The translations under genes and the position numbers were made by a program. A stretch of 64,000 bases of DNA, taken from NCBI GenBank assembly GCA_033763215.1, contig JANRKW010000014.1, positions 68,214-132,213 of the forward strand, in the 5' to 3' direction. The notes below the pieces were generated by a model. That model saw only the letters and a list, made by a program, of their open reading frames with translations. It had not been told where the DNA came from and did no database searches. This stretch comes from Isosphaeraceae bacterium. GTDB lineage: Bacteria > Planctomycetota > Planctomycetia > Isosphaerales > Isosphaeraceae. Positions 1-42,317 of this stretch are shown piece by piece (positions within the stretch are counted from its first letter, which is position 1; every line of letters begins with the position of its first letter).

Positions 1-433
1 GGAACGGGATGGTGCTGTTGAGCTCGACGTGGATCTCGCCGCAGATCTTGCCGCGCTCGAGCTCGGCCCGCCAATCCCGCGCCGTCTCGATGGCGCTGAG
101 GAGCTCTTCCATGCCGTAGGGCTTGGTGACGTATGCGTTGGCCCCGACTCGGAAGCCGCCGATCCGATGGTCGAGATCGCCCAACGCAGTGAGCATGACG
201 ATCGGAGTGAGCATGGTCCGAGCGTCGGATCGAACTCGGCGACAGATCTCGAAGCCGTTGACGTCCGGGAGCATCACATCGAGGAGGACGACGTCGAAGA
301 CCTGAGAACTGACGAGACGGAGCGCGGTGGCTCCGTCGGATGCGATCTCGGGCTCGATCGAATGGTGACGCAACAGTCGCGCAACCATCGATGCTTGGTC
401 GGCATCATCCTCGACGATCAGGGCTCTCGACAT
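1..433 (-). CDS. Response regulator receiver-domain protein. Only the N-terminal 144 aa are in the window; the gene continues past position 1.
   Basis: Reverse translation from ATG at 433..431 gives MSRALIVEDDADQASMVARLL...VFDVVLLDVMLPDVNGFEICRRVR...IVMLTALGD...ANAYVTKPYGMEELLSAIE. This has the CheY-like hallmarks: the acidic pair, the phospho-acceptor Asp in the LLDVMLPD context, and a conserved T/K. It is not in the ORF track because it is truncated by the window edge. Confidence 0.7.
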   Translation of the reverse strand, partial: MSRALIVEDDADQASMVARLLRHHSIEPEIASDGATALRLVSSQVFDVVLLDVMLPDVNGFEICRRVRSDARTMLTPIVMLTALGDLDHRIGGFRVGANAYVTKPYGMEELLSAIETARDWRAELERGKICGEIHVELNSTIPF

Positions 434-515
434 CGCGCGACCCTCCCCCCACTGCTCGCCGAGACGACCGACCGGTGAGGTGGGTTCGCCGCGGTTCGCG
501 TTCGTTCTCCAGCGT

Positions 516-1508
516 TCAGGCATGGAGTTCGACGACGTCGCCCTCATGCAGTTCGTGATCCCGTTTGACCGTTTGGCCGTCGAAGACTCCGACGCCCCAG
601 ACCTTGGCGAACTTCAACGAGTGTTCGAGATCGCGATGAACTTCGCGAGCGAGATCGAGCACCGTCGAGCCGATCGGCAAGGTGAAAGGACTGGTGCGAT
701 CGACCGGCTTCCCGGGAACCTTGGTGTAAATCCGGATGACGCCTAGTAGATCGTAGGAGAACCGGCGGACGTCGTCCATCCCGCGACCGGTTTCGGACGC
801 CGCGGCGAGGATCGGAAACCGGGCGTCGAACCATTCGCGGACGATGGCGAGCCGGTCCTCCGCGCCCTCGGCGTCGGCCTTTTGGGCGAGGAGGATCGTG
901 GGAACGTGGCGGATCAATTCGTCTTCGGAGTCGTGCGGCAACGTGCCGACGAGTTCGGTGTGGACCTGTTCGAGTCGCTCGAGGACGGTTGTCGCGTCGT
1001 CGACGACGTCGTCGGACTCGAGGTCGACGACGAAGAGCGCCGCGTCGGCGGAGCGGATGATGTTGGGGACCCAGGGTTCCATCAGATCGGCGGAGATCGG
1101 CGGCAGGTCGACGAGTTGGATCCTCACGTCCTCGAACATCATGATCCCGGGGTAGGGGGCCCGGGTGGTGAAGGGGTAGGGGGCGATCTCGGGCTTGGCG
1201 TTCGTCAGGGAGGCCAACAGGGCCGACTTCCCGACATTCGGGGCGCCGACGAGCACGATCTGGCCCGCACCCTCGCGCGGAACGCGACGACTGACGCCGG
1301 TCGGCTTTCCCGTCGTCTTCCCGCCCTCGAGGTCGTCCTTGGCCCGACTGATCTTCTGCTTGAGGTCGGACTGGAGCTTTTCCGTGCCCTTGTGCTTGGG
1401 GAGTAGCCGGAACATCTCCCGCAACTTCTCGAGGCGCTCGGCGGGCGTGGTTGCCTTTCGAAACTCGTCCTCGGCTTTGCTGTACTGCGGTGGAAGATTC
1501 GCGGGCAT
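516..1508 (-). CDS. Obg-superfamily GTPase with a C-terminal TGS domain, DRG/Rbg1-like
   Basis: Track ORF 516..1769, with an internal ATG at 1508 (cat at 1506..1508 on the plus strand). G1 P-loop GAPNVGKS, G2 PFTT, G3 DLPP. N-terminal helical region KHKGTEKLQSDLKQKISRAKDDLE resembles the DRG KNKATE...LKAKLAKYR motif. C-terminal IRIYTKVPGKPVDRTSPFTLPIGSTVLDLAREVHRDLEHSLKFAKVWG...GDVVEL is a TGS domain, closely paralleling human DRG1 C-terminal CIYTKKRGQRPDFTDAIILRKGASVEHVCHRIHRSLASQFKYALVWG. Confidence 0.8.
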   Translation of the reverse strand: MPANLPPQYSKAEDEFRKATTPAERLEKLREMFRLLPKHKGTEKLQSDLKQKISRAKDDLEGGKTTGKPTGVSRRVPREGAGQIVLVGAPNVGKSALLASLTNAKPEIAPYPFTTRAPYPGIMMFEDVRIQLVDLPPISADLMEPWVPNIIRSADAALFVVDLESDDVVDDATTVLERLEQVHTELVGTLPHDSEDELIRHVPTILLAQKADAEGAEDRLAIVREWFDARFPILAAASETGRGMDDVRRFSYDLLGVIRIYTKVPGKPVDRTSPFTLPIGSTVLDLAREVHRDLEHSLKFAKVWGVGVFDGQTVKRDHELHEGDVVELHA

Positions 1509-2870: not shown

Positions 2871-4769
2871 ATGCCGGTCATGTTGCGACGACACCCTTGC
2901 GCCTTGCTGCCGCCGATGCTCCTGATCCTCTCGTCGACGATCGGCTGCTCGATGACGTCTCCCGGTGCGCCTCGAACCGGGGGACGCTCGGAGTTGAAGA
3001 CGATCGCCTCGGTCGGCGATCGTCCATTGCCCGCGGTCACGGGCGAACCCGGGGCTTCGGTCGTCGCCGCGGAAACCGCGCCTCCCTCGCGACGAACGGC
3101 CTCGAGCCGAATCTCGGGCCGCGTCGTCGACCGGCGAGGCCGGCCGGTGCCCAATGCGCTGGTGCGAACCGCGCTCGGCGCAACGACCGCGGGCCGCGTC
3201 GCCGAGACGACGACCGATTCGTCGGGCGGCTTCACGCTCCACGGACTCCGTCCGGGCTCGCGATACACGCTCATCGCCGAGTTTGAGACCGACGACGGCC
3301 TGGAGTCGGGCCGGATCGATGCGCTCGCCTCGGAGAGTGGTCTCGAGATCGCGCTGAGCGGCGACGAAATGCCCGACGCGCCGAGGCTCGGGGCAGGGGA
3401 GGGGGCCCGTGCGCGTTCGGTGTCGAATCGGACTCCGATCGATGACCTCGACGAGATCGATGCTCCGGCTTCTCGACGCTCGCGTGCCGCAGTCGAGGTG
3501 AATCTGGACGACATTCCAACGAGCGAGGAGATCGAGGCGAGAAACTCCCCCGAGCCGACGGTCGACTTCGCTCCAGCGCGGGATGCTACGCCGCGACCCG
3601 GAACATCGGGCTGGCGCGGGGTCGGAGATGAGCCGATCGGCCGTGCGACGATTCCGAGTGCGGGAATCTCACGCACGACGGATCTCGATGCCAAGGCAGC
3701 CGCTCGCACCCTCGATCCACCGCCCGCAAGCGAGGTCGAGTCGTTGGACGAGCCGGGGTCGAGGCTCTCCGAGGACGACGGGGAGAATCCGCTTCCTCCC
3801 GCGATCGATCCTTCTGCGTCGCGACCTTCGAGCCGGGAACTCGGCAGTCGCGGCACGCCCTCCTCTCGACCCACGCGCGGCGCTGGGGAGTTCGACGCGG
3901 CGGCGCTGCTCGCCGCTGAAGCGAATGCCGGCGGGATCAGGTTGGCGGAGCGGGACGCATCGCCTCGGCCGCCGGTCGACTGGGACGGCACCAAGGGGCA
4001 GGGGGCGGTTTCGCAACAACCGTCGTCGCTCGCGACTGAGGACACGCCCAGCGGACGAAACGCGCCGACGGAGCTCCCGGAGAGCCCCGCTCGGGCCACG
4101 ACATGGGATGAACTCCTCGCGGCGGAGGCCGGGCCTCGAACCGCTTCACGCCGCGAGCCTTCCGTCGCGCCGGATGCCGCGACCGCTCCGGCGACGGCCT
4201 CTGCGTCCACGACGCGTGCCCCGTCGCGTCTCCTCGACGTCTTTCGGCGATCCACTCCCGGCGACACCACGCCCGCAAGACTCGAGCTCTGTCGCTATGA
4301 TGCGTCGCGGCAGAAGCTCGACGAGCTGCGTCTCCCTGATGCCGACGGTCGGGTCGTGTCGTTTCGAGAGATCGACGCCGACTACGTGCTCCTCGACTTC
4401 TGGGGAAGCTGGTGTCGTCCCTGCGTCCAGTCGATCCCGCACCTCGTCGAGCTCCAGAATCGATTCGGTCCGCGGATCAAGATCGTCGGAATCGCATGCG
4501 AGAAAGGCGGATTCGAGGAGCGCGCGGCCAAGGCTCGCGAAACCGCGACGAAGCTTGGCGTGAACTACACGGTGCTCGTGAGTTCCGCGGAGGAGTTCAG
4601 CCCGGTCCTGGACGCGCTGAAGATCCAGGGCTTTCCCACGATGATCTTGGTCGACCGCTCCGGCAAGGTCGTTTGGCGCGAGCAGGGTGCAGCGCCGCCG
4701 ACCTTGGCGCGGCTCGACCGAGTGCTCGCCGCGTCGGCGGCGGGAGTCGGCGATTCGGTCCGTCGCTGA
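2871..4769 (+). CDS. Secreted/lipoprotein-like protein. It has a carboxypeptidase-regulatory-like beta-sandwich, a ~330-aa Pro/Ala/Ser/Arg-rich disordered linker, and a C-terminal TlpA/ResA-like thioredoxin domain.
   Basis: SD-like caggagggg lies immediately upstream of the ATG. Signal and lipobox-like stretch: LLPPMLLILSSTIGC. CarbopepD_reg-like segment: GRVVDRRGRPVPNALV...DSSGGFTLHGLRPGSRYTLIAEF. Thioredoxin CxxC motif WCRPC, followed by ...GFPTMILVDRSGKVVW. Confidence 0.75.
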   Translation: MPVMLRRHPCALLPPMLLILSSTIGCSMTSPGAPRTGGRSELKTIASVGDRPLPAVTGEPGASVVAAETAPPSRRTASSRISGRVVDRRGRPVPNALVRTALGATTAGRVAETTTDSSGGFTLHGLRPGSRYTLIAEFETDDGLESGRIDALASESGLEIALSGDEMPDAPRLGAGEGARARSVSNRTPIDDLDEIDAPASRRSRAAVEVNLDDIPTSEEIEARNSPEPTVDFAPARDATPRPGTSGWRGVGDEPIGRATIPSAGISRTTDLDAKAAARTLDPPPASEVESLDEPGSRLSEDDGENPLPPAIDPSASRPSSRELGSRGTPSSRPTRGAGEFDAAALLAAEANAGGIRLAERDASPRPPVDWDGTKGQGAVSQQPSSLATEDTPSGRNAPTELPESPARATTWDELLAAEAGPRTASRREPSVAPDAATAPATASASTTRAPSRLLDVFRRSTPGDTTPARLELCRYDASRQKLDELRLPDADGRVVSFREIDADYVLLDFWGSWCRPCVQSIPHLVELQNRFGPRIKIVGIACEKGGFEERAAKARETATKLGVNYTVLVSSAEEFSPVLDALKIQGFPTMILVDRSGKVVWREQGAAPPTLARLDRVLAASAAGVGDSVRR

Positions 4770-7868: not shown

Positions 7869-10800
7869 TCAGGGTTTACCGAGGTGCTCCGCGAGCCATC
7901 CGTGCATCGCCTTCCACCATTCGATCCGATTCGCGGGCTGGAGGATCCAGTGCCCCTCATCGGGGAAGAGCACCAATCGGCTCGGAACCCCGCGACGTTG
8001 CAGCGCCGTGAAGAGGCCGATGCCTTGGGCCTCGGGCACTCGGAAATCGAGAGCTCCGTGGATCACGAGCGTCGGCGTCTTGAAGTTCTTCACGAACGCG
8101 CTCGGCGTCTGGCTCTTGTAGAGATCAGGGGCATCCCAAGGAGGTCCGCCGAACTCGAATTCGGGAAACCAGAGTTCCTCTGTTGTTCCGTACTTGCTCG
8201 TCAGGTCGAACACGCCCGCGTGGCTGATCAAGGCCTTGAAGCGGTCGGTGTGGCCCAGGATCCAGTTGACCATGAACCCGCCGTACGACCCGCCCGCCGC
8301 CGCCATGCGCGACTCGTCGAGGAAGGAATACGTCTTCAAGGCATGATCGAGCCCGAGCATGAGGTCGGTGTAGACGCGACCAGTCCAATCCTTGCTGATC
8401 TGGAGCGTGAACTTCTGGCCGTAGCCGGTCGATCCGCGAGGGTTGATCGCGACACCCACGTAGCCCGGGCTGGTGAACATCGCGTAGTTCCAGCGTGCCG
8501 ACCATTCGTCGTGCCAGGCACCTTGGGGGCCGCCGTGGATCAAGAAGAGCACGGGGTACTTCTTCTTGGGGTCGAATCCGGGCGGTTTGATCAACCATCC
8601 CGCGACCTCGTCGCCGTCGGCTCCCTTGAAGCGAAACTCCTCGGCGCGATGGAGGTCGAGCTCGGCGAACTTCGCCGCGTTGTGCTTGGTGAGCGCGACC
8701 GACTTCGATCCGTCGGACGAGGTCCGGTGGATCTCGGCGGGGGAGACCGAGTTCGCGTGGAGATGTATCAGGTTTTTTCCAGTGCTCGTCGCCGCCGTCG
8801 AGACCCCGCCCTTGGTGAGAATCTCGGGAGCCGCGACGAGCAGGCGTCCCGCTTCGTCTTCGATGAAGCCGATCCGCACCAACGGCTCCGTGCCCTCGTG
8901 GTCGACGACGGCGATCAGTTCGTAGAGAGTTCCGGCATCGACCTTCGACGGCGGCCCCCAAGAGAATCCGAGAACTGGTCGGTCGAGGGTTCGAGTCAAT
9001 TCGACGAACTGACTCGTTTCACGGCTCTTCACCGTCAAGACCCACTGATCCGACTCATATCCCGGAGTGTCCTGGGAGACGAAGGCGAGGAAGGCTCCGT
9101 CCGGAGAGAAGGCGGGTTGAGCGTCGGCCGCGGGGTTGCCCGAGGTCAGGTTGCGGAGCTTGCCGCCGCTTGAGGGTACGCTCCAGAGGTCGGTGTTCGT
9201 CGACCATGCCATGTTCTCGACCGGCTCGGCCGTGAACACGACCTCGAGTCCGTCGGGGGAGAAGGCGTAATCGCTCGACCCGCCGAACGGGGCGGGCGGG
9301 GTGTTGACGCGGAGTTCAGGAGTCACGTCGATCGCCGCACCCGTCGTCGCGTCGATCACGAGCAGATGGGACCGCTTGCCATCGTCCCATCGATCCCAGT
9401 GACGGATCATCAAAGAGTCATAGACGCGAACCTTGCTCTTCGAGGCGGCGCGAGCCTTGTCGCGGGCGGCGGTCTCCTCGGGGGTCGTGCCGGGGTAGAC
9501 TTCGGCGGCGACCACGAGCTTGTCGCCCTTGGGCGACCAGATCGGTCCGGAGACGTCGATCGGCAACTTGGTGAGCGGGCGAGCCTCGCCGCCGTCCGGA
9601 GGGATCAGCCAGACCTGGCTCGAGCCGCCTCGCGACGACGTGAACGCGATCTCGCGACCGTCGGGCCTCCATCGCGGATGGGTGTCGGGGCCGGGGGTCG
9701 CCGTCAACCTGCGCGGCTCGCCGCCTTCAACCTGTACGATCCAGAGGTCGGCGTTGCTCTTGCCGGCGGCGGGGTCGTACTCCGACACGACGTAGACGAC
9801 GAGCTTGCCGTCGGGAGAGACCTGCGGGTCGCTCACCGACTTGACTCCGAGGAGGTCGTCGACCTTCATCGGACGTCCGGCCGCCGACGCCGTCGAATCG
9901 AGCCCGCCCCAAACCACGAGCGCGAGCAATACGGCGGCGATTCCCGAGTTGTTCATGGGGGTCTTCCTCTCGAAGAGCCTCAGGATCCGCAGGATCACGA
10001 CCAGGCTGAGCGCGGCGGCGAACGAGGTGATCACGAGGATGAGGAACAACTTGCTCGGCGGATACTTGCCCCAGAACTGACCGGTGACGTGCACGAGCTT
10101 GTTGCCGACGGCCGTTGCCAGGAACCAGAAGCCCATCCAGAGGCCGCGGTAGCGGGGCGGAGCGAGCTTCGAGGTCAGTGAGAGACCGATCGGGCTGATC
10201 CAGAGTTCGGCGACGGTCAAGAGCGCGTAGCATCCGACGAGCCATCCGGGCCCGACCTTCCCGGTGTCGGCCCCGGCGAATCCGGCGGCCATCATCACAA
10301 CATAGGCGAGGCCGGTGACGATCATCCCCAAGATCATCTTGGTCGTCGTCGACGGCTCGCGACGCGCCCGAGCCAGGCTCGACCAGAGCCAGACCATGAC
10401 GGGGCTGAGCACGAGGATCAGGAACGGATTCACCGACTGAAAGGTCTCGGGGTCCCAGTCGGACTGGGTATTGTCGCGGGCGAAGAAGGTGAGCGTGACC
10501 GAATTCTGATGGAACGCCATCCAGAAGATCGCCACCACGACGAAGACCGCCTTGAGTCGCGCGGCGTCGGCAGCGACGCGGTCGCCGACCGCGAGGAACA
10601 TCGCGACGGTGATCGTCTCGATCGCCAGCCAGATGATCCCGAAATGGACGACGTCGGTCGGCCAGAGTCCCACCGCGGCGATCGACTCGGGCCAGGGGAC
10701 GAGCGGCCCCAGCAGCAGCCAAGCCAGAGCGATTCCGACCGCGACCATGTTGAACGTCTGTGCGAACGCGATTCCGCGGTCGCTCGCGGTCAACGGAGCG

Positions 10801-11534
10801 CTCGTCAACGCCAAGGTCTCCGCCGCTCGTGCGTTGCCGGCCTTGGCGCTGAACTTGCCCTTGTTCAACACGAAGATGAGGAGGCTGAGGAGCATGCCGA
10901 AGCCCGCCGAGCCGAATGCGAGGTGCCAGCCGGCCTCGGCCGGGAGCGACGTGCCGAAGAGGTCGTTGACGATCCCGACTCCGTTCTTGCGGATGTAGTT
11001 CGCCGCCAGGGGGGCGAGCGTCGCGCCGACGTTGATGCCCATGTAGAAGATCGTGTACCCCTGGTCGCGGCGGGGGTCGTCGCTCGCGTAGAGGTCGCCC
11101 ACGATCGACGAGACGTTCGGCTTGAACAATCCGTTTCCTGCGATCAAGAGACCGAGAGCTGCGAACAGGAAGATGTGATCGCTCGACGCCTTCGAGTCGA
11201 AGGCGAGAGTGATGTGCCCGGCCATCATCAGGACGCCGCCGATCAGGATCGCGGTCGAAGGCCCTGTGATCTTGTCTGCGATCAGGCCGCCCAGAAAAGG
11301 CGTGAAGTAGACGAGAGCGATGTACCAAGTGGCGATGTCGGAAGCGCGAGCGTTGGCGAATCCGAGATAGTCGGTCATATAGAGAGTCAAGAGCGCGATC
11401 ATCAAATAGAAGCTGAATCGTTCCCACATCTCCGTGAAGAAGAGCGTGAACAGCCCTCGGGGATGACCGAGGAAGCCGGACTCGGCGGAGCGCGGGGCGC
11501 CCGTCGTCGACTCGGAGGTGTTCGGCGGATTCAT
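7869..11534 (-). CDS. Single-ORF fusion of a POT-family (proton-dependent oligopeptide transporter) di/tripeptide:H+ symporter (N-terminal, ~526 aa) with a signal-anchored S9 prolyl-oligopeptidase-family serine peptidase (C-terminal, ~695 aa)
   Basis: Continuous frame 7869..11663. The chosen start MNPPNTSE is at 11534 (cat at 11532..11534); it avoids overlap with the upstream hydrolase gene. POT signatures: GHPRGLFTLFFTEMWERFSFYLMIALLTLYM (ExxERFxYY), GGLIADK, FKPNVSSIVGDLY. The junction lies near 9956, where RLFERKTP-MNNSGIAAVLLALVVWGGLDSTASAAG looks like a signal peptide or extra TM helix with an AxA site. After that comes a beta-propeller plus alpha/beta-hydrolase with PVLFLIHGGPQGAW, the nucleophile motif GGSYGGFM, and the end LFPDEGHWI. 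I re-translated the DNA across the junction by hand and found no stop or frame change. Confidence 0.8.
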   Translation of the reverse strand: MNPPNTSESTTGAPRSAESGFLGHPRGLFTLFFTEMWERFSFYLMIALLTLYMTDYLGFANARASDIATWYIALVYFTPFLGGLIADKITGPSTAILIGGVLMMAGHITLAFDSKASSDHIFLFAALGLLIAGNGLFKPNVSSIVGDLYASDDPRRDQGYTIFYMGINVGATLAPLAANYIRKNGVGIVNDLFGTSLPAEAGWHLAFGSAGFGMLLSLLIFVLNKGKFSAKAGNARAAETLALTSAPLTASDRGIAFAQTFNMVAVGIALAWLLLGPLVPWPESIAAVGLWPTDVVHFGIIWLAIETITVAMFLAVGDRVAADAARLKAVFVVVAIFWMAFHQNSVTLTFFARDNTQSDWDPETFQSVNPFLILVLSPVMVWLWSSLARARREPSTTTKMILGMIVTGLAYVVMMAAGFAGADTGKVGPGWLVGCYALLTVAELWISPIGLSLTSKLAPPRYRGLWMGFWFLATAVGNKLVHVTGQFWGKYPPSKLFLILVITSFAAALSLVVILRILRLFERKTPMNNSGIAAVLLALVVWGGLDSTASAAGRPMKVDDLLGVKSVSDPQVSPDGKLVVYVVSEYDPAAGKSNADLWIVQVEGGEPRRLTATPGPDTHPRWRPDGREIAFTSSRGGSSQVWLIPPDGGEARPLTKLPIDVSGPIWSPKGDKLVVAAEVYPGTTPEETAARDKARAASKSKVRVYDSLMIRHWDRWDDGKRSHLLVIDATTGAAIDVTPELRVNTPPAPFGGSSDYAFSPDGLEVVFTAEPVENMAWSTNTDLWSVPSSGGKLRNLTSGNPAADAQPAFSPDGAFLAFVSQDTPGYESDQWVLTVKSRETSQFVELTRTLDRPVLGFSWGPPSKVDAGTLYELIAVVDHEGTEPLVRIGFIEDEAGRLLVAAPEILTKGGVSTAATSTGKNLIHLHANSVSPAEIHRTSSDGSKSVALTKHNAAKFAELDLHRAEEFRFKGADGDEVAGWLIKPPGFDPKKKYPVLFLIHGGPQGAWHDEWSARWNYAMFTSPGYVGVAINPRGSTGYGQKFTLQISKDWTGRVYTDLMLGLDHALKTYSFLDESRMAAAGGSYGGFMVNWILGHTDRFKALISHAGVFDLTSKYGTTEELWFPEFEFGGPPWDAPDLYKSQTPSAFVKNFKTPTLVIHGALDFRVPEAQGIGLFTALQRRGVPSRLVLFPDEGHWILQPANRIEWWKAMHGWLAEHLGKP

Positions 11535-11637
11535 CGGCGGCTGGTCTCCAAGTCGATCGGGGATCCGGGCGGCCGGCCGGAAGCCCAGCAGGCGGATCGT
11601 GGTGCGACGAAGTGAGGAGGAGAGGCGGACAAGGATC

Positions 11638-13017
11638 CTAATCGATCGCTCGGCCGTTCCCAAGTCCGCGGTTCCCCGAGACCGGCAGGTCGGTCGCCAG
11701 TCGATCGAGGATGAACGGCATCGCGACCACCGGCCCCGGGTCCGGATAGATCAGCGGAGCGCGGATCAATTCGAGATGATCGGCGTGGACGACCTCGTGG
11801 TCGGCGACTCCGGCGAGCTTGCTCCGCTCGACCGCGACGCAGCCGTCGCCCGTGCCGTCGGTCAACTCCTCGAATTGACCGAGCAGGGCGGGGCCGGCAA
11901 GCCGCGCGGCGATGCCCAGTCGACCGATGATCTGTTTGCTGACGGGGGCTCGGATCAGTCCGACGTCCCCGGCGATGATGTGGTAGCCGACGCTGGGCCG
12001 TCTGCGGTAGGAGTCGAGACGCCTCAGCAGACGCGAACCTGGAGTGAGATCCTCGGCGGCCGCCCCCAGCCCGTCTCCGAGAAAGGCAAGGGCGTCGGCG
12101 CGCGTCTTGCCGTTCACCGCCTGCACACCCTGGAGGAACTGGAGCGCGGTCTGCGCCTGGGCGAGATACGAGCCGCCGTTCACCGGGGCGATCATGATCG
12201 AGCTCGCGACCTCGCCCGAGCGATCGGGCTCGCCCTCGACGAGTTCTCGGGCGAGCAGGGCCCCCATCGAGTGCGACACCAGGGCCCAGGGGCGCTTCTC
12301 GCGGTTCGCGGTTCGAAATCGATCCCAGTCTCGTCGGAACTCGGCGACGGTCTCCTCAACGTCGCGATTGTACGGATAGTCGTAGACCACGACGCCGTAT
12401 CCCGCGCGTTCGATCGGCTCGACCATGTGCAGGAAGACGCTCGAGGTCGAGTTCATGCCGTGAATCAGGCAGACCGTCGGCCGTGAGGGGTCGTTCGGCC
12501 GGTACGACTCGCGGGGCCAGAGCCCGTAGAAGTTGCGTCGACCCTTCTCGCGCTCGACCCGCTCGATCAGCCGCTTCAATCCGCGTTCCCACGCCGGTCG
12601 CGAATCGGGGCCGAGACGGTCTCTCGGGATGGTGATCCGCGCGCTTGCGGGCTCGAACGTGATCGTCGGCCCGACGCCGAGGGCCTCTTGGAGCAGCGTT
12701 CGGGTCAACGCTCCTCCGAGTCCATCGGTGGGAAGCGCGAGGATTCCATCCGCCTTCGGAATCTCGACGCCCGCTGTCTTGGCGATCGCTGCGGCGAATG
12801 CGCCGAGTTCGATCTTGCGATCCTCGCCGAGCGGCACGACGACCACCACCGGCGCCGGTCCGTCGTCGTCGTTCGAGCGACTCGGAGCCGACTGAGCGAC
12901 CAGCAACACGCCGGCAAGAATGAGGATCGAGTTCACGATCGAGATGCTCCGCGAGATCCCGGCGCGGGCTCGACGCCGGAGTCGACGATCGTAGCCGAGA
13001 GCGGTCCGCCTCGCCAA
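11638..13017 (-). CDS. Secreted/membrane-anchored alpha/beta-hydrolase (lipase/esterase-like)
   Basis: N-terminal TM/signal segment SIVNSILILAGVLLVAQSA. Oxyanion region CLIHGMNSTSSVF. Nucleophile elbow VSHSMGA (GxSxG). Confidence 0.6.
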   Translation of the reverse strand: MARRTALGYDRRLRRRARAGISRSISIVNSILILAGVLLVAQSAPSRSNDDDGPAPVVVVVPLGEDRKIELGAFAAAIAKTAGVEIPKADGILALPTDGLGGALTRTLLQEALGVGPTITFEPASARITIPRDRLGPDSRPAWERGLKRLIERVEREKGRRNFYGLWPRESYRPNDPSRPTVCLIHGMNSTSSVFLHMVEPIERAGYGVVVYDYPYNRDVEETVAEFRRDWDRFRTANREKRPWALVSHSMGALLARELVEGEPDRSGEVASSIMIAPVNGGSYLAQAQTALQFLQGVQAVNGKTRADALAFLGDGLGAAAEDLTPGSRLLRRLDSYRRRPSVGYHIIAGDVGLIRAPVSKQIIGRLGIAARLAGPALLGQFEELTDGTGDGCVAVERSKLAGVADHEVVHADHLELIRAPLIYPDPGPVVAMPFILDRLATDLPVSGNRGLGNGRAID

Positions 13018-17708: not shown

Positions 17709-19001
17709 ATGACGAGTGTCCGAAAATTCCCCACGACTCCGGGCGTCTACCTCATGAAGGACGCCCAGGGTCGCGTGATCTACATCGGCAAGGCGAAGAA
17801 CCTTCGCGCTCGCGCGGCGTCGTACTTCCAGAAGACCGCGGCGGATGACCGCCGGATCAAGGACTGGATCGGCGAGGTGGTCGAGGTCGACTACCTCGCG
17901 GCGGACAGCGAGGTCGACGCTCTCCTGCTCGAGGCTCGACTGATCAAGGATATCCAGCCGCGGCACAACGCCGATCTCAAGGACGACAAGTCGTTCCCGT
18001 ATCTTCAGATCACGACCAACGAAGACTTTCCTCGCGTCAACTTCACGCGCGAACCGAAAGCGCGGGGAGTGAAGCTCTACGGGCCGTTTCCTCGGGCCCG
18101 CGGGCTCCGAGGCGCGATCCAAGTGCTCCAGAAGGTCTTCAAGTTTCGCACTTGTTCGCTCGAGATCGAGGAAGGCGACCCACGTTGGCGGTGGTTCCGG
18201 CCCTGTCTCCTGCATTCGATCGATCAGTGTACGGCGCCTTGCAACCTCAAGATCGACAAAGAGGCATACAAGAGGGATATTCGCCGACTCAAGCTCTTCC
18301 TCGACGGCAAGAAGGCGGTGGTCGTCGCCGAGATCGAAGCCGAGATGAAGGAGGCATCGAAGGCACTCCTCTTCGAGAAGGCTGCTCGGCTGCGAGACGA
18401 ACTCCAAGCGCTTCGGAACATCGATCTCCGCGGCGATCTCGCCAAGCACGCCCAGCCCGAGGTGTTCTACGTCGACCCCAAGCGCGGGTTGACGGGCTTG
18501 CGCAAGGTCCTCGAGCTCGAGACGACGCCTCGCAGGATCGACGGAGTGGACATCGCACATCTCGGCGGGACGGAAACGGTCGGTTCGCTCGTCTGCTTCA
18601 TCGACGGCCTGCCCTTCAAGCCGGGGTATCGACGTTACCGCATCAAGACCGTGAAGGGTGTCGACGACTTTGCGTCGATCCGCGAGGTCGTCGCGCGGCG
18701 AATCGAGGGACTCCAGGAACGCGAAGAACCGTTCCCCGACATCTTCTTGATCGATGGGGGCAAGGGGCAGCTCAACGCCGCGCTCTCGGCGTTCGAGTCG
18801 GCGGGGGTTCGTCCGCCGACCCTCATCTCGCTCGCCAAACGCGAGGAAGAGATCTACGTCCCCGGCCGTTCGGACCCGATCGTGCTGAGTCGTCGGTCGT
18901 TCGCTCTCCGTCTGTTACAATATGTGCGCGACGAGGCCCACCGCTTCGCGCAACACTATCACCACATGTTGCGGACCAAGCGGACGTTCGACGAGACCTG
19001 A
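17709..19001 (+). CDS. uvrC: Excinuclease ABC subunit C, short form with no C-terminal (HhH)2 domain
   Basis: The track ORF starts at 17619. The likely start is ATG 17709 (MTSVRKFPTTPGVYLMKD). GIY-YIG motifs: PGVYLM...VIYIGKAKNLRAR. Cys-rich region: FRTCSLEIE...RPCLLHSIDQCTAPC. UVR motif: ARLRDELQALRNI. RNase-H-like endonuclease domain with DEAHRFA. The protein ends 44 nt before the next gene, so there is no room for an HhH region. Confidence 0.8.
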   Translation: MTSVRKFPTTPGVYLMKDAQGRVIYIGKAKNLRARAASYFQKTAADDRRIKDWIGEVVEVDYLAADSEVDALLLEARLIKDIQPRHNADLKDDKSFPYLQITTNEDFPRVNFTREPKARGVKLYGPFPRARGLRGAIQVLQKVFKFRTCSLEIEEGDPRWRWFRPCLLHSIDQCTAPCNLKIDKEAYKRDIRRLKLFLDGKKAVVVAEIEAEMKEASKALLFEKAARLRDELQALRNIDLRGDLAKHAQPEVFYVDPKRGLTGLRKVLELETTPRRIDGVDIAHLGGTETVGSLVCFIDGLPFKPGYRRYRIKTVKGVDDFASIREVVARRIEGLQEREEPFPDIFLIDGGKGQLNAALSAFESAGVRPPTLISLAKREEEIYVPGRSDPIVLSRRSFALRLLQYVRDEAHRFAQHYHHMLRTKRTFDET

Positions 19002-19044
19002 GCTCTCATCGAACGGTCGCGATCCGAGATTCGACGCACCGACC

Positions 19045-20943
19045 ATGATCCTCGTCTCCGCCCGCGGGTTGGGCCGGCAGTATTCCGGCGACCCGATCTT
19101 CACCGACCTCCAGTTCGAGATCCGGACCGGGGAGCGGATCGGCCTGGTCGGGCCCAACGGCGCCGGCAAGACGACGCTGATGCGCGTCATCGCCGGTCTC
19201 GATGCCCCGGAGTACGGCGATATCCATGTGCGCTCGGGGATTCGAGTGTCCCTGTTGCGTCAGCAGCCCGACTTCGGCCCCGACGACACGTTGATGAGCG
19301 TGGCGCGCTCGGGGCTGGCGTCGCTCGTGGAACTTCAGCGCGAGCTCGAGGAAGCGGCCGCCGAGATGGCCGAAGCCGATGACGAAGAAGATCGCCGTCG
19401 TGCCGGTCGCCGATACGATGAGATCAACGAACGGCTCGTCCATCAGGACGCCTACTCGGTCGAGCACCGCGTGGAGGAGATCCTCGGCGGTCTCGGTTTC
19501 GCCAAGAGCGATTTCGGTCGCAGAGCGGGGACGTTCTCGGGTGGTCAGCAGTCCCGACTGATGCTCGCGAAGCTGCTGCTTCAGAGCCCCGACCTGATGC
19601 TGCTCGACGAGCCGTCGAACCACCTCGACATCGAGACGACGAGCTGGCTCGAGAGCTATCTCGCGAGGCAGGCGGTTGCGATGGTGATCGTCAGTCACGA
19701 CCGCTACTTCCTCGACAAGGTCGTCACCAAGATCTGGGAACTCTTCGACGGTCGGATCGAGGCTTATCCCGGCAACTACACTCAGTATTGGAGGCTGCGC
19801 GGCGAGCGGGCCAAAGTGCTTCAGAAGCAAGCCGAGAAGCAACAGGAACAGATCGCCGACCTCGAAGCCTACATCCGCAAGTACGGCGCGGGTCAGCGGG
19901 CCAAACAGGCCCACGACCGCGAGAAGAAGCTGGCGCGGATCGAACGCGTCGAGACGATGCGCGACGTCGAAGGGCCCGTGATGGGCTTCGGCGAGGTCGA
20001 CCGCTCGGGCGACATCGTCGTCGAGGCCCGCAAGCTCACCAAGGCGTTCGACAAGTCGCTGTTCAAGGACTTCGACCTCAGCCTGCTGCGCGGGCAGTGC
20101 GTCGGCGTGCTCGGACCCAACGGAGCCGGCAAGACCACGCTGATCAAGTCGTTGATCGGTCGAGAGAAGCCCGACTCGGGCGAGGTCAAGCTCGGGCACA
20201 AGGTGCTCGTCGGCTACCACGACCAAGGGCTGCACTCTCTCAGTCCAGAGACGACCGTCGTCCGTGCGGTTTGGCCCGAGGACGAACCCGACTGGGGTGA
20301 GGGCGACGTCCGCAACTTGCTCGCGCGCTTCGGCCTGACCGGCGAGCAGGCGTTCCGGACCGTCGGCGTCCTCTCCGGAGGTGAAAAAGCGAAGGCGGCT
20401 CTGGCACGCCTCGCCGCGACCTCGGCGAACCTCCTGGTCATGGACGAGCCGACGAACCACCTCGATATCTGGTCGTGCGACGCACTCGAACGCTCGATCC
20501 TCGAATTCGAAGGGACCGTGCTCGTCGTCAGCCACGACCGGTACTTCCTCAATCGTGTCGCAGACCGGATCATCTCCGTGGCGAACGGCCGAGCCCGCGT
20601 GATCGAGGGCGACTACGAGACCTATCAACGATTGATCCAACAAGAGAACGAGGCGGCCGCGGCGAAGCAGGCGACTGCCGCCAAACTCGACGATTCGACG
20701 AAGTCGACGGGCAAGGCCGAGAAGAGGAAACGGAAGTATCCCTACCGAAAGGCGGGCGATATCGAGCGCGAGATCGGCGCGGTCGAGGCCGAAGTCGCCG
20801 AACTCGAGGATCGTCTCGGTCAGCCCGCGACCTGGAAGGATCCGGTCAAGGCCCGCGACCTCCAGCTTCGCCACGACGAACGAAAGAAGTCGCTCGCCGC
20901 GCTCTACGAGCACTGGGAAGAAGCTCTCGAGCTCAACGCCTGA
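19045..20943 (+). CDS. ABC-F family ATPase (Uup/YheS-like; two ABC domains, no TM domain)
   Basis: ATG at 19045. Two Walker A motifs, GPNGAGKTT at ~19.1 kb and ~20.1 kb. Two signature motifs, LSGGQQSRL and LSGGEKAKA. An inter-domain linker and a C-terminal coiled-coil/basic tail (KRKRKYPYRKAGDIEREI...ELEDRL). Confidence 0.85.
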   Translation: MILVSARGLGRQYSGDPIFTDLQFEIRTGERIGLVGPNGAGKTTLMRVIAGLDAPEYGDIHVRSGIRVSLLRQQPDFGPDDTLMSVARSGLASLVELQRELEEAAAEMAEADDEEDRRRAGRRYDEINERLVHQDAYSVEHRVEEILGGLGFAKSDFGRRAGTFSGGQQSRLMLAKLLLQSPDLMLLDEPSNHLDIETTSWLESYLARQAVAMVIVSHDRYFLDKVVTKIWELFDGRIEAYPGNYTQYWRLRGERAKVLQKQAEKQQEQIADLEAYIRKYGAGQRAKQAHDREKKLARIERVETMRDVEGPVMGFGEVDRSGDIVVEARKLTKAFDKSLFKDFDLSLLRGQCVGVLGPNGAGKTTLIKSLIGREKPDSGEVKLGHKVLVGYHDQGLHSLSPETTVVRAVWPEDEPDWGEGDVRNLLARFGLTGEQAFRTVGVLSGGEKAKAALARLAATSANLLVMDEPTNHLDIWSCDALERSILEFEGTVLVVSHDRYFLNRVADRIISVANGRARVIEGDYETYQRLIQQENEAAAAKQATAAKLDDSTKSTGKAEKRKRKYPYRKAGDIEREIGAVEAEVAELEDRLGQPATWKDPVKARDLQLRHDERKKSLAALYEHWEEALELNA

Positions 20944-42246: not shown

Positions 42247-42317
42247 TACCCGGTGGTGTAACGGTAACACATCAGGTTTTGGTCCTGATTTTCCAGGTTC
42301 GAATCCTGGCCGGGTAA
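42247..42317 (+). tRNA. tRNA-Gln (anticodon UUG)
   Basis: Manual fold. Acceptor TACCCGG/CCGGGTA. D-arm GTGT-AACGGTA-ACAC. Anticodon stem TCAGG/CCTGA with loop TTTTGGT, so the anticodon is TTG. T-arm CCAGG-TTCGAAT-CCTGG. Discriminator A. CCA is not encoded. Confidence 0.75.

Follow-up and report, generated by a model that had tools for sequence, protein, structure and literature searches.

The conserved GTPases of the DRG/Rbg type are bound to the ribosome, and how they work is still under debate. In Rbg1 the G domain, the helix-turn-helix (HTH) and the TGS domain bind the ribosomal GTPase-associated centre, and S5D2L touches the tRNA in the A site. Deletion of the HTH or the TGS domain abolishes function, while deletion of S5D2L leaves partial function (PMC8629797). 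According to reviews, DRGs are absent from bacteria (PMC8629797, PMC4263083), and preprints from 2024-2026 likewise deny bacteria DRGs and take Obg, which shares only the G domain, as a stand-in (PMC8629797; 10.64898/2026.05.13.724932). In a 2026 preprint on the Obg/Rbg phylogeny the bacterial side consists of Obg alone, a protein without HTH, TGS and S5D2L (10.64898/2026.05.13.724932). Here we analyse a DRG-like GTPase gene at one end of a 64,000-nucleotide stretch of DNA from an Isosphaeraceae bacterium (contig JANRKW010000014.1), referred to below as the window. An original prediction, made from the DNA alone, had called the protein a DRG/Rbg1-like GTPase and had described DRG as archaeo-eukaryotic, a view that the two reviews share.

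The best explanation, with a probability of roughly 60%, makes the GTPase a typical representative of a large and uncharacterised bacterial family of P-loop GTPases from the Obg superfamily, the bacterial branch of the DRG/Rbg lineage. The gene and the parts of its product are the following, all on the minus strand, with window positions first.

516-1508, minus: coding sequence of the DRG-like GTPase, 330 aa, from the ATG at 1508-1506 to the TGA at 518-516, stop codon included.
1323-1508, minus (residues 1-62): N-terminal extension MPANLPPQY (helix 7-18) and DRG-type HTH, with a predicted local distance difference test score (pLDDT) of 84-96 in the AlphaFold2 (AF2) model.
744-1268, minus (residues 81-255): Obg-superfamily G domain, with the Pfam domain MMR_HSR1 at residues 83-180 (E 2e-17).
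1224-1247, minus (residues 88-95): intact G1/P-loop GAPNVGKS, read from the sequence and the family counts.
1098-1109, minus (residues 134-137): G3, read directly from the sequence as DLPP and not DxxG.
912-947, minus (residues 188-199): short loop at the site of the ~55-residue S5D2L of DRGs, placed by spacing and profile alignment.
873-884, minus (residues 209-212): G4, reading QKAD; the family consensus is [N/T]KxD.
519-743, minus (residues 256-330): C-terminal TGS domain with the motifs RIYTKVPG and IHRD; PF02824 at residues 258-329, E 2.5e-14.

We place the start at the ATG at 1508 because MPANL opens nearly all homologs; this N-terminus is conserved across the family, and M1 is found in 189 of 203 diverse members, the set used for all motif counts below. 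A longer open reading frame (ORF) that starts with GTG and reaches 1769 is, on the same grounds, unsupported. The database protein P0001, "GTPase [Isosphaeraceae bacterium]", is identical to the window GTPase. A promoter and terminator scan of positions 1-2000 gave nothing exceeding shuffle expectation. The original prediction had read helices at the N-terminus, followed by a G domain and a C-terminal TGS domain, in one protein, and Pfam and the alignments bear this out; the peptide it quoted for the helical region, KHKGTEKLQSDLKQKISRAK, corresponds to residues 38-57.

To place the protein among the known GTPases, we compared it with all PDB sequences. The best matches of the single sequence are Rbg2 (4e-24) and Rbg1 (3e-23), followed by Obg at 2e-11; the alignments to Rbg1 and Rbg2 take in the N-terminal helices as well as the TGS domain. 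With a profile of 60 members the E-values become 2e-54 for Rbg2 and 3e-51 for Rbg1, then 2e-23 for MTG2, 2e-21 for Obg and 2e-10 for YchF. The assignment to DRG/Rbg rather than to Obg or YchF, as first proposed, is thus upheld. The TGS domain aligns to the human DRG1 TGS structure 2eki (3.6e-11 with the single sequence, 9.5e-21 with the profile), in agreement with the parallel that had been drawn to the C-terminal stretch of human DRG1. A single-sequence AlphaFold model was unusable (pLDDT 42); the AF2 model built on a 60-sequence alignment has a pLDDT of 92.3, and in a Foldseek search its top match is Rbg1 at 5e-19, with Nog1, MTG2 and HflX next at ~1e-11.

The alternative that the protein is a divergent Obg or YchF, a housekeeping GTPase that only resembles DRG, is extremely improbable. 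It draws on the names of the top NCBIfam models, which are ObgE, CgtA and YchF-related, and on the fact that YchF likewise ends in a TGS-like domain. However, none of the NCBIfam equivalog models of Obg, YchF, Era, Der and HflX comes near its cutoff, and their matches are confined to the G domain. The Obg/CgtA models TIGR02729 and NF008955 reach 56.7 bits (cutoff 280) and 58.7 bits (cutoff 406) within the G domain, and the YchF model TIGR00092 reaches 32.9 bits (cutoff 279) in the P-loop region, so that the matches span 33-59 bits against cutoffs of 279-406. According to Pfam, neither the GTP1_OBG N-domain nor YchF-GTPase_C is present in the window GTPase. By profile E-value, DRG is ahead by some 30 orders of magnitude. 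Identities point the same way: the family is on average 28% identical to canonical DRGs, 20% to E. coli ObgE and 22% to YchF, and its identity to the archaeal long forms described below is 36-38%. The domain scan, the NCBIfam scores and the profile search together refute an Obg or YchF identity.

The details of the sequence place the protein close to DRG, with two marked departures. In the AF2 model the HTH consists of helices 22-35 and 40-60. The region (residues 20-62) aligns to Rbg1 and Rbg2, with the apex PKHKGTEK opposite their "QKNKATE". In alignment A1, which contains 60 diverse members with the window protein as row 1, N4, P37, H39 and K40 are invariant; among the diverse members N4 is found in 198 (the other five have gaps), P37 in 200, and H39 and K40 in 202 each. 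The family has about 20 additional conserved N-terminal residues, and the apex and TGS motifs are conserved throughout. The nucleotide site is largely kept: in the P-loop, G88 and G93 are found in all 203, K94 in 202, S95 in 201 and N91 in 200. The G2 threonine is present in 203/203, the G3 aspartate is strongly conserved, and so is the G5 SA motif, found in most members.

The first departure is in switch II. The G3 glycine position is occupied by proline in 168 members, alanine in 27, serine in seven and glycine in one. Compared with DRG, switch II has lost 4-5 residues in length, and in the alignment the Gly-rich segment GAxxGxG[R/L]G of DRG, Obg and YchF is deleted. The second is the loss of S5D2L. 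PF16897 (MMR_HSR1_Xtn, S5D2L) gave no match in the window GTPase at E<=0.1, while an archaeal DRG control matched at 2e-30; the domain was not found in the precomputed domain lists of the homologs either. The spacing from G3 to G4 is 75-80 aa in the family and 130-135 aa in canonical DRGs, and the family profile alignment jumps over Rbg2 residues 183-235. We also considered S5D2L in family members with a longer G3-to-G4 spacing. The archaeal long forms alone have it; the bacterial members of 349-358 aa contain short insertions of other kinds and no PF16897. With S5D2L and the DxxG with its Gly-rich switch II missing, the description of the protein as a DRG does not hold in the strict sense.

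At G4 the family has asparagine (117) or threonine (59) in the first position. In the window protein the change from Asn to Gln corresponds to two nucleotide substitutions. Among 129 close relatives the string ILLAQKADAE turns up twice, once in the window protein and once in the identical database entry, and the common variants listed read ANKxD. Otherwise the protein carries every motif of the short family: a length of ~330 aa, MPANLxPxY, PKHKGTE, GxPNxGKS, DxP[P/A/S], no S5D2L, and a TGS domain. Its identity to other family members is 36-78%.

The family is large. A HMMER search covering 1.84 billion cluster representatives (clusters at 50% identity) gave 541 clusters at E<=1e-30, and the top 150 are nearly all full-length proteins of 320-340 aa. 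When one genome for each GTDB species was scanned, at least 600 of them contained the family. Taxonomy was read for the best 80 matches, which are all bacterial and come from ~17 phyla: Planctomycetota, Acidobacteriota, Zixibacteria, Methylomirabilota, Armatimonadota, Bipolaricaulota, Poribacteria, Gammaproteobacteria (Woeseiaceae, Arenicellales), Desulfobacterota, Nitrospinota, Gemmatimonadota, Latescibacterota, Thermotogota, Binatia, Eisenbacteria, Aerophobetes, Clostridia and Spirochaetales. Members are 36-50% identical to each other, and IMG names many of them "ribosome-interacting GTPase 1". Among bacteria other than the model organisms the family is common, and it is no planctomycete curiosity. 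The window gene is an ordinary member of it; the picture of an isolated bacterial DRG copy is not borne out. The family is already in the databases, annotated as COG1163-like, and it is undescribed as a bacterial DRG relative in the literature that we found: a literature search (COG1163, DRG-like, Planctomycetes) returned no published description of a bacterial DRG-like family.

This breadth bears on the origin of the gene. A true DRG ortholog, lately transferred from an archaeon or a eukaryote into a planctomycete, would fit the best PDB matches, which are the yeast proteins Rbg1 and Rbg2, and the reviews that call DRG absent from bacteria. Against such a transfer stand the ~17 bacterial phyla among the best 80 matches and the at least 600 genomes, and an identity of 36-50% among members with only ~28% to canonical DRGs. 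The family also falls outside the canonical DRG clade, and S5D2L and DxxG are missing family-wide. The bacterial neighbour genes of the other bacterial matches, and complete genomes such as CP155447.1, speak against these matches being contaminating archaeal contigs. Breadth, identity, tree placement and missing hallmarks largely refute a recent transfer, and we give it very little chance.

The relatives that inform the origin of the family are archaeal. Some of the longer matches in the cluster search are proteins of 387-388 aa from Thermococcales (Thermococcus, Pyrococcus, Palaeococcus) and of 388-392 aa from Desulfurococcales.

Archaeal long forms: P0253, P0479 and P0511 (Thermococcales); P0255 and P0518-P0559 (Desulfurococcales); locus L205, 5837-7015.

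These long forms have the bacterial-type N-terminus and the PKHKGTE apex, and keep the full S5D2L (PF16897, 1e-13 to 1e-21). On shared columns they score 354-370 bits with the hidden Markov model (HMM) of the bacterial family and 267-327 bits with that of canonical DRGs. To obtain canonical DRGs we scanned metagenomes with the DRG switch-II pattern, which gave 42 full-length proteins, one of them traced to Thermoplasmata. The neighbour-joining (NJ) trees also contained Rbg1/2 of yeast and, from E. coli, ObgE and YchF. The canonical DRG clade is recovered with 97/80/77% bootstrap, and all bacterial sequences are outside it; a phylogeny with archaeal and eukaryotic DRGs, which the original prediction had proposed, does not place the family among the canonical ones. 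The topology is (outgroups,(canonical DRG,(Thermococcales,(P0263,(Desulfurococcales, bacteria))))). Bacteria and long forms are joined at 75% and 52%, and bacteria and Desulfurococcales at 68% and 50%.

By these comparisons the closest relatives of the bacterial family are the archaeal long forms of Desulfurococcales and Thermococcales. Rare changes are nested in the same order: the N-terminal extension, then G3 Gly-to-Pro with the loss of the Gly-rich segment, then the deletion of S5D2L and the shortening of switch II. An ancient archaeal origin with domain loss is suggested because the long forms share the N-terminus (and the Desulfurococcales also DxPP) and keep S5D2L. With moderate support from the NJ trees, the most economical reading would be a descent of the bacterial family from an archaeal lineage of DRG type, with a single loss of S5D2L. 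The horizontal acquisition that had been suggested for this gene may be right in this deep sense, with the long forms as the nearest relatives, and is unsupported as a recent event.

Two unusual sequences were seen in this part of the analysis. P0263, a metagenomic long form of 386 aa, has the P-loop GMTGSGRS (Lys to Arg, with the Asn lost) and ELPA at G3, and keeps S5D2L and TGS; it may be an inactive GTPase. P0258 (445 aa) is a normal short-family protein over its first 190 residues. An acidic insertion and an Arg/Pro-rich tail follow, TGS is absent, and the sequence resembles the product of a frameshifted gene call.

By analogy with Rbg1, the GTPase is likely to be a nucleotide-dependent ribosome-binding factor. 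Judging from the alignments, the bacterial family keeps exactly the parts that are essential in Rbg1. As in Rbg1, the protein would dock at the GTPase-associated centre of the 70S ribosome via its G, HTH and TGS domains, depending on the nucleotide, and would modulate translation, for example on paused ribosomes. Docking would take place without the A-site tRNA contact that S5D2L gives Rbg1, and without a DFRP partner. We know of no DFRP partner in prokaryotes, and no protein with a DFRP domain of the Tma46/Gir2 type was found among the 13 products scanned within the 64-kb window. DFRPs are firmly known only from eukaryotes (PMC8629797).

Sensing of the gamma-phosphate would be non-canonical. 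A proline at G3 cannot offer a backbone NH to the gamma-phosphate, and for this reason switch II would have to be coupled differently. Hydrolysis would probably be slow, or dependent on the ribosome or on K+; stimulation by a cation or by the ribosome is suggested because the conserved P-loop Asn is the residue of K+-dependent GTPases. We also considered a reading that joins these elements, in which bacteria of many non-model phyla have an overlooked true DRG/Rbg relative of crenarchaeal-type origin (MPANL N-terminus, DxPP) that arrived by ancient transfer between domains of life, lost S5D2L, and acts as a DFRP-independent factor for paused 70S ribosomes with a proline switch II. Taken as a whole it is tentative, and we rather doubt it than assert it.

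The remodelled switch II also fits a different function. The protein could be a pseudo-GTPase or sensor that binds GTP or another nucleotide without switch-II hydrolysis, and would then serve as a static factor for ribosome binding or scaffolding. In favour are the replacement of the G3 glycine in 202 of 203 members, the deleted Gly-rich segment and a G4 that a minority of members have relaxed (THxD, QKAD); in addition, one archaeal long form has a Lys-to-Arg P-loop. On the other hand G1, the G2 Thr (203/203), the G3 Asp and the G5 SA are strongly conserved, and G4 is [N/T]KxD in most members, as expected of a working Mg-nucleotide site. Furthermore, the Obg-family HAS-GTPases hydrolyse GTP without a switch-II catalytic Gln. 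We regard a pseudo-GTPase as unlikely.

Several points weigh against the family as a bacterial, ribosome-binding branch of the DRG/Rbg lineage. For every member, binding to the ribosome, nucleotide specificity and GTP hydrolysis are inferred by analogy. Without the G3 glycine and with a remodelled switch II, normal GTPase cycling may fail, and the window protein itself has QKAD instead of NKxD. There is no translation-related gene neighbourhood at the examined family loci. The trees are all NJ trees with moderate bootstrap values, 54-71% for the monophyly of the bacteria and 50-75% for the link to the long forms.

The genes that flank the GTPase are a receiver-domain gene downstream and a divergent gene upstream.

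1-433, minus: 5' part of a receiver-domain gene, at least 144 codons, cut by the window edge; Response_reg, E 3.7e-25.
434-515: spacer of 82 nt from the GTPase stop to the regulator start.
1772-2566, plus: divergent upstream gene for a SirB1-like protein with transglutaminase core and TPR (Transglut_core2 E 9e-46, TPR_9), context outside the feature.

The 144 visible residues of the regulator contain no stop codon, and its C-terminus lies beyond the window. Over 142 aa it is 63% identical to a 279-aa protein of Singulisphaera with REC and HATPase_c_2 domains. The gene order in Singulisphaera sp. Ch08 is the GTPase, this 279-aa REC + HATPase_c_2 (RsbW-type) protein, and a REC-HisKA-HATPase_c kinase. 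Judging from this ortholog, the window regulator is probably a REC + HATPase_c_2 (RsbW-type) protein as well. A receiver gene had been predicted downstream of the GTPase and is indeed found there, 82 nt away; its description as CheY-like is probably wrong.

One may ask whether the GTPase and the receiver protein form a signalling module, in which a REC + RsbW-like partner-switch reads or controls the GTPase, at least in Isosphaerales. The order of GTPase, REC + HATPase_c_2 and REC-HisKA-HATPase_c on one strand recurs in 7-8 genomes of Isosphaerales, with GTPases that are 66-78% identical. The spacer measures only 60-115 nt, and a terminator is not predicted. However, a receiver gene lies directly downstream only in Isosphaerales loci, where the GTPases are at least 66% identical, and the pairing is missing from the other ~74 loci, including other Planctomycetota, so that it is not conserved across Planctomycetes. 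When the flanking ORFs of 83 loci were clustered, no neighbour was common to more than nine loci, and the recurring clusters are antisense shadows of the GTPase gene or generic proteins (ABC ATPase, histidine kinases, SDR, PanE). In the spacer at 434-515 no terminator-like or sigma-70-like site is predicted, and the aligned spacers of the orthologous Isosphaerales loci contain no conserved element. Synteny at this phylogenetic depth is expected from descent alone. The REC + RsbW-like neighbour is an Isosphaerales-specific gene order and no family-level partner; we find the module improbable, and the suggested regulatory module has no counterpart at family level. The SirB1-like gene adjoins the GTPase in this window only, when the flanks of the family loci are compared.

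In a more distant planctomycete, a Gemmataceae metagenome-assembled genome (locus L010, 2550-3860), the gene of a PAS-HisKA-HATPase_c-REC hybrid kinase is found 126 nt upstream of the GTPase. Two lineages of planctomycetes have two-component genes beside the GTPase, but the genes lie on opposite sides of it and differ in architecture.

The rest of the window contains a few further features. At 2871-4769 on the plus strand is a gene for a 632-aa protein with a CarboxypepD_reg domain, long low-complexity linkers rich in Ser, Ala, Pro and Arg, and a C-terminal thioredoxin/redoxin domain with WCxxC. The minus-strand ORF at 7872-11750, 1293 aa from stop to stop, has a POT/PTR2-MFS region at about aa 109-549, a PD40 repeat and a C-terminal S9 region at aa 1083-1292; it is either an unusual fusion of a transporter and a peptidase (prolyl-oligopeptidase, S9) or two adjacent genes in frame. 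An ABC-F-type ATPase with two ABC_tran domains, an ABC_tran_Xtn linker and ABC_tran_CTD is encoded at 18889-20940 on the plus strand, ~17 kb from the GTPase; ABC-F-type ATPases are another family of ribosome-associated factors. A tRNA gene at 42247-42317 on the plus strand (64.7 bits) is the sole Rfam match in the whole window and is far from the GTPase locus.

For this locus the result is modest, as the gene is an ordinary member of its family and a GTPase-regulator module is unsupported beyond one order. The family itself is of wider interest. A widespread bacterial family with HTH and TGS would offer a simpler, partner-free system for the DRG core on the ribosome, and it bears on the claimed archaeo-eukaryotic restriction of the DRG lineage. 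It is also a natural experiment on a G domain without the G3 glycine. If the ancient transfer is true, Obg would be neither the only nor the closest bacterial counterpart of Drg.

Compared with the known systems, the family has least in common with Obg/CgtA and YchF/Ola1. They belong to the same superfamily, with the GxPNxGKS P-loop and YPFTT at G2, all of them are ribosome-associated, and YchF ends in a TGS-like domain; the window protein differs in that it is without the glycine-rich N-domain of Obg, the coiled-coil insertion of YchF and YchF-GTPase_C.

The archaeal long forms, annotated as "OBG GTPase family GTP-binding protein" or "RBG1-like", stand nearer. In Desulfurococcales the N-terminus is MPANLPPE and G3 reads DTPP, as in the bacterial family. 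In Thermococcales (Pyrococcus furiosus, 387 aa) the N-terminus is MPTNVTAEY, and xxPG and GAxxGKGMG are kept. Unlike the bacterial family, the long forms have S5D2L and a near full-length switch II, and all are archaeal.

Canonical DRGs (COG1163; Pfam MMR_HSR1 + MMR_HSR1_Xtn + TGS) comprise human DRG1/2, yeast Rbg1/Rbg2 and archaeal DRG. They form a separate clade of proteins of 364-374 aa, against ~330 aa in the bacterial family, with ~28% identity between the two. Canonical DRGs have S5D2L, and the bacterial family is without PF16897; they have DxxG followed by GAxxGxGRG, where the bacterial family has DxP[P/A/S] and a shortened switch II. Common to the two are the N-terminal HTH and its apex K-x-K-[A/G]-T-E, the Obg-type G domain, in which a hydrophobic residue follows G3, and the TGS domain at the C-terminus. 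In the sequence and Foldseek comparisons canonical DRGs are far ahead of the other matches of the bacterial family.

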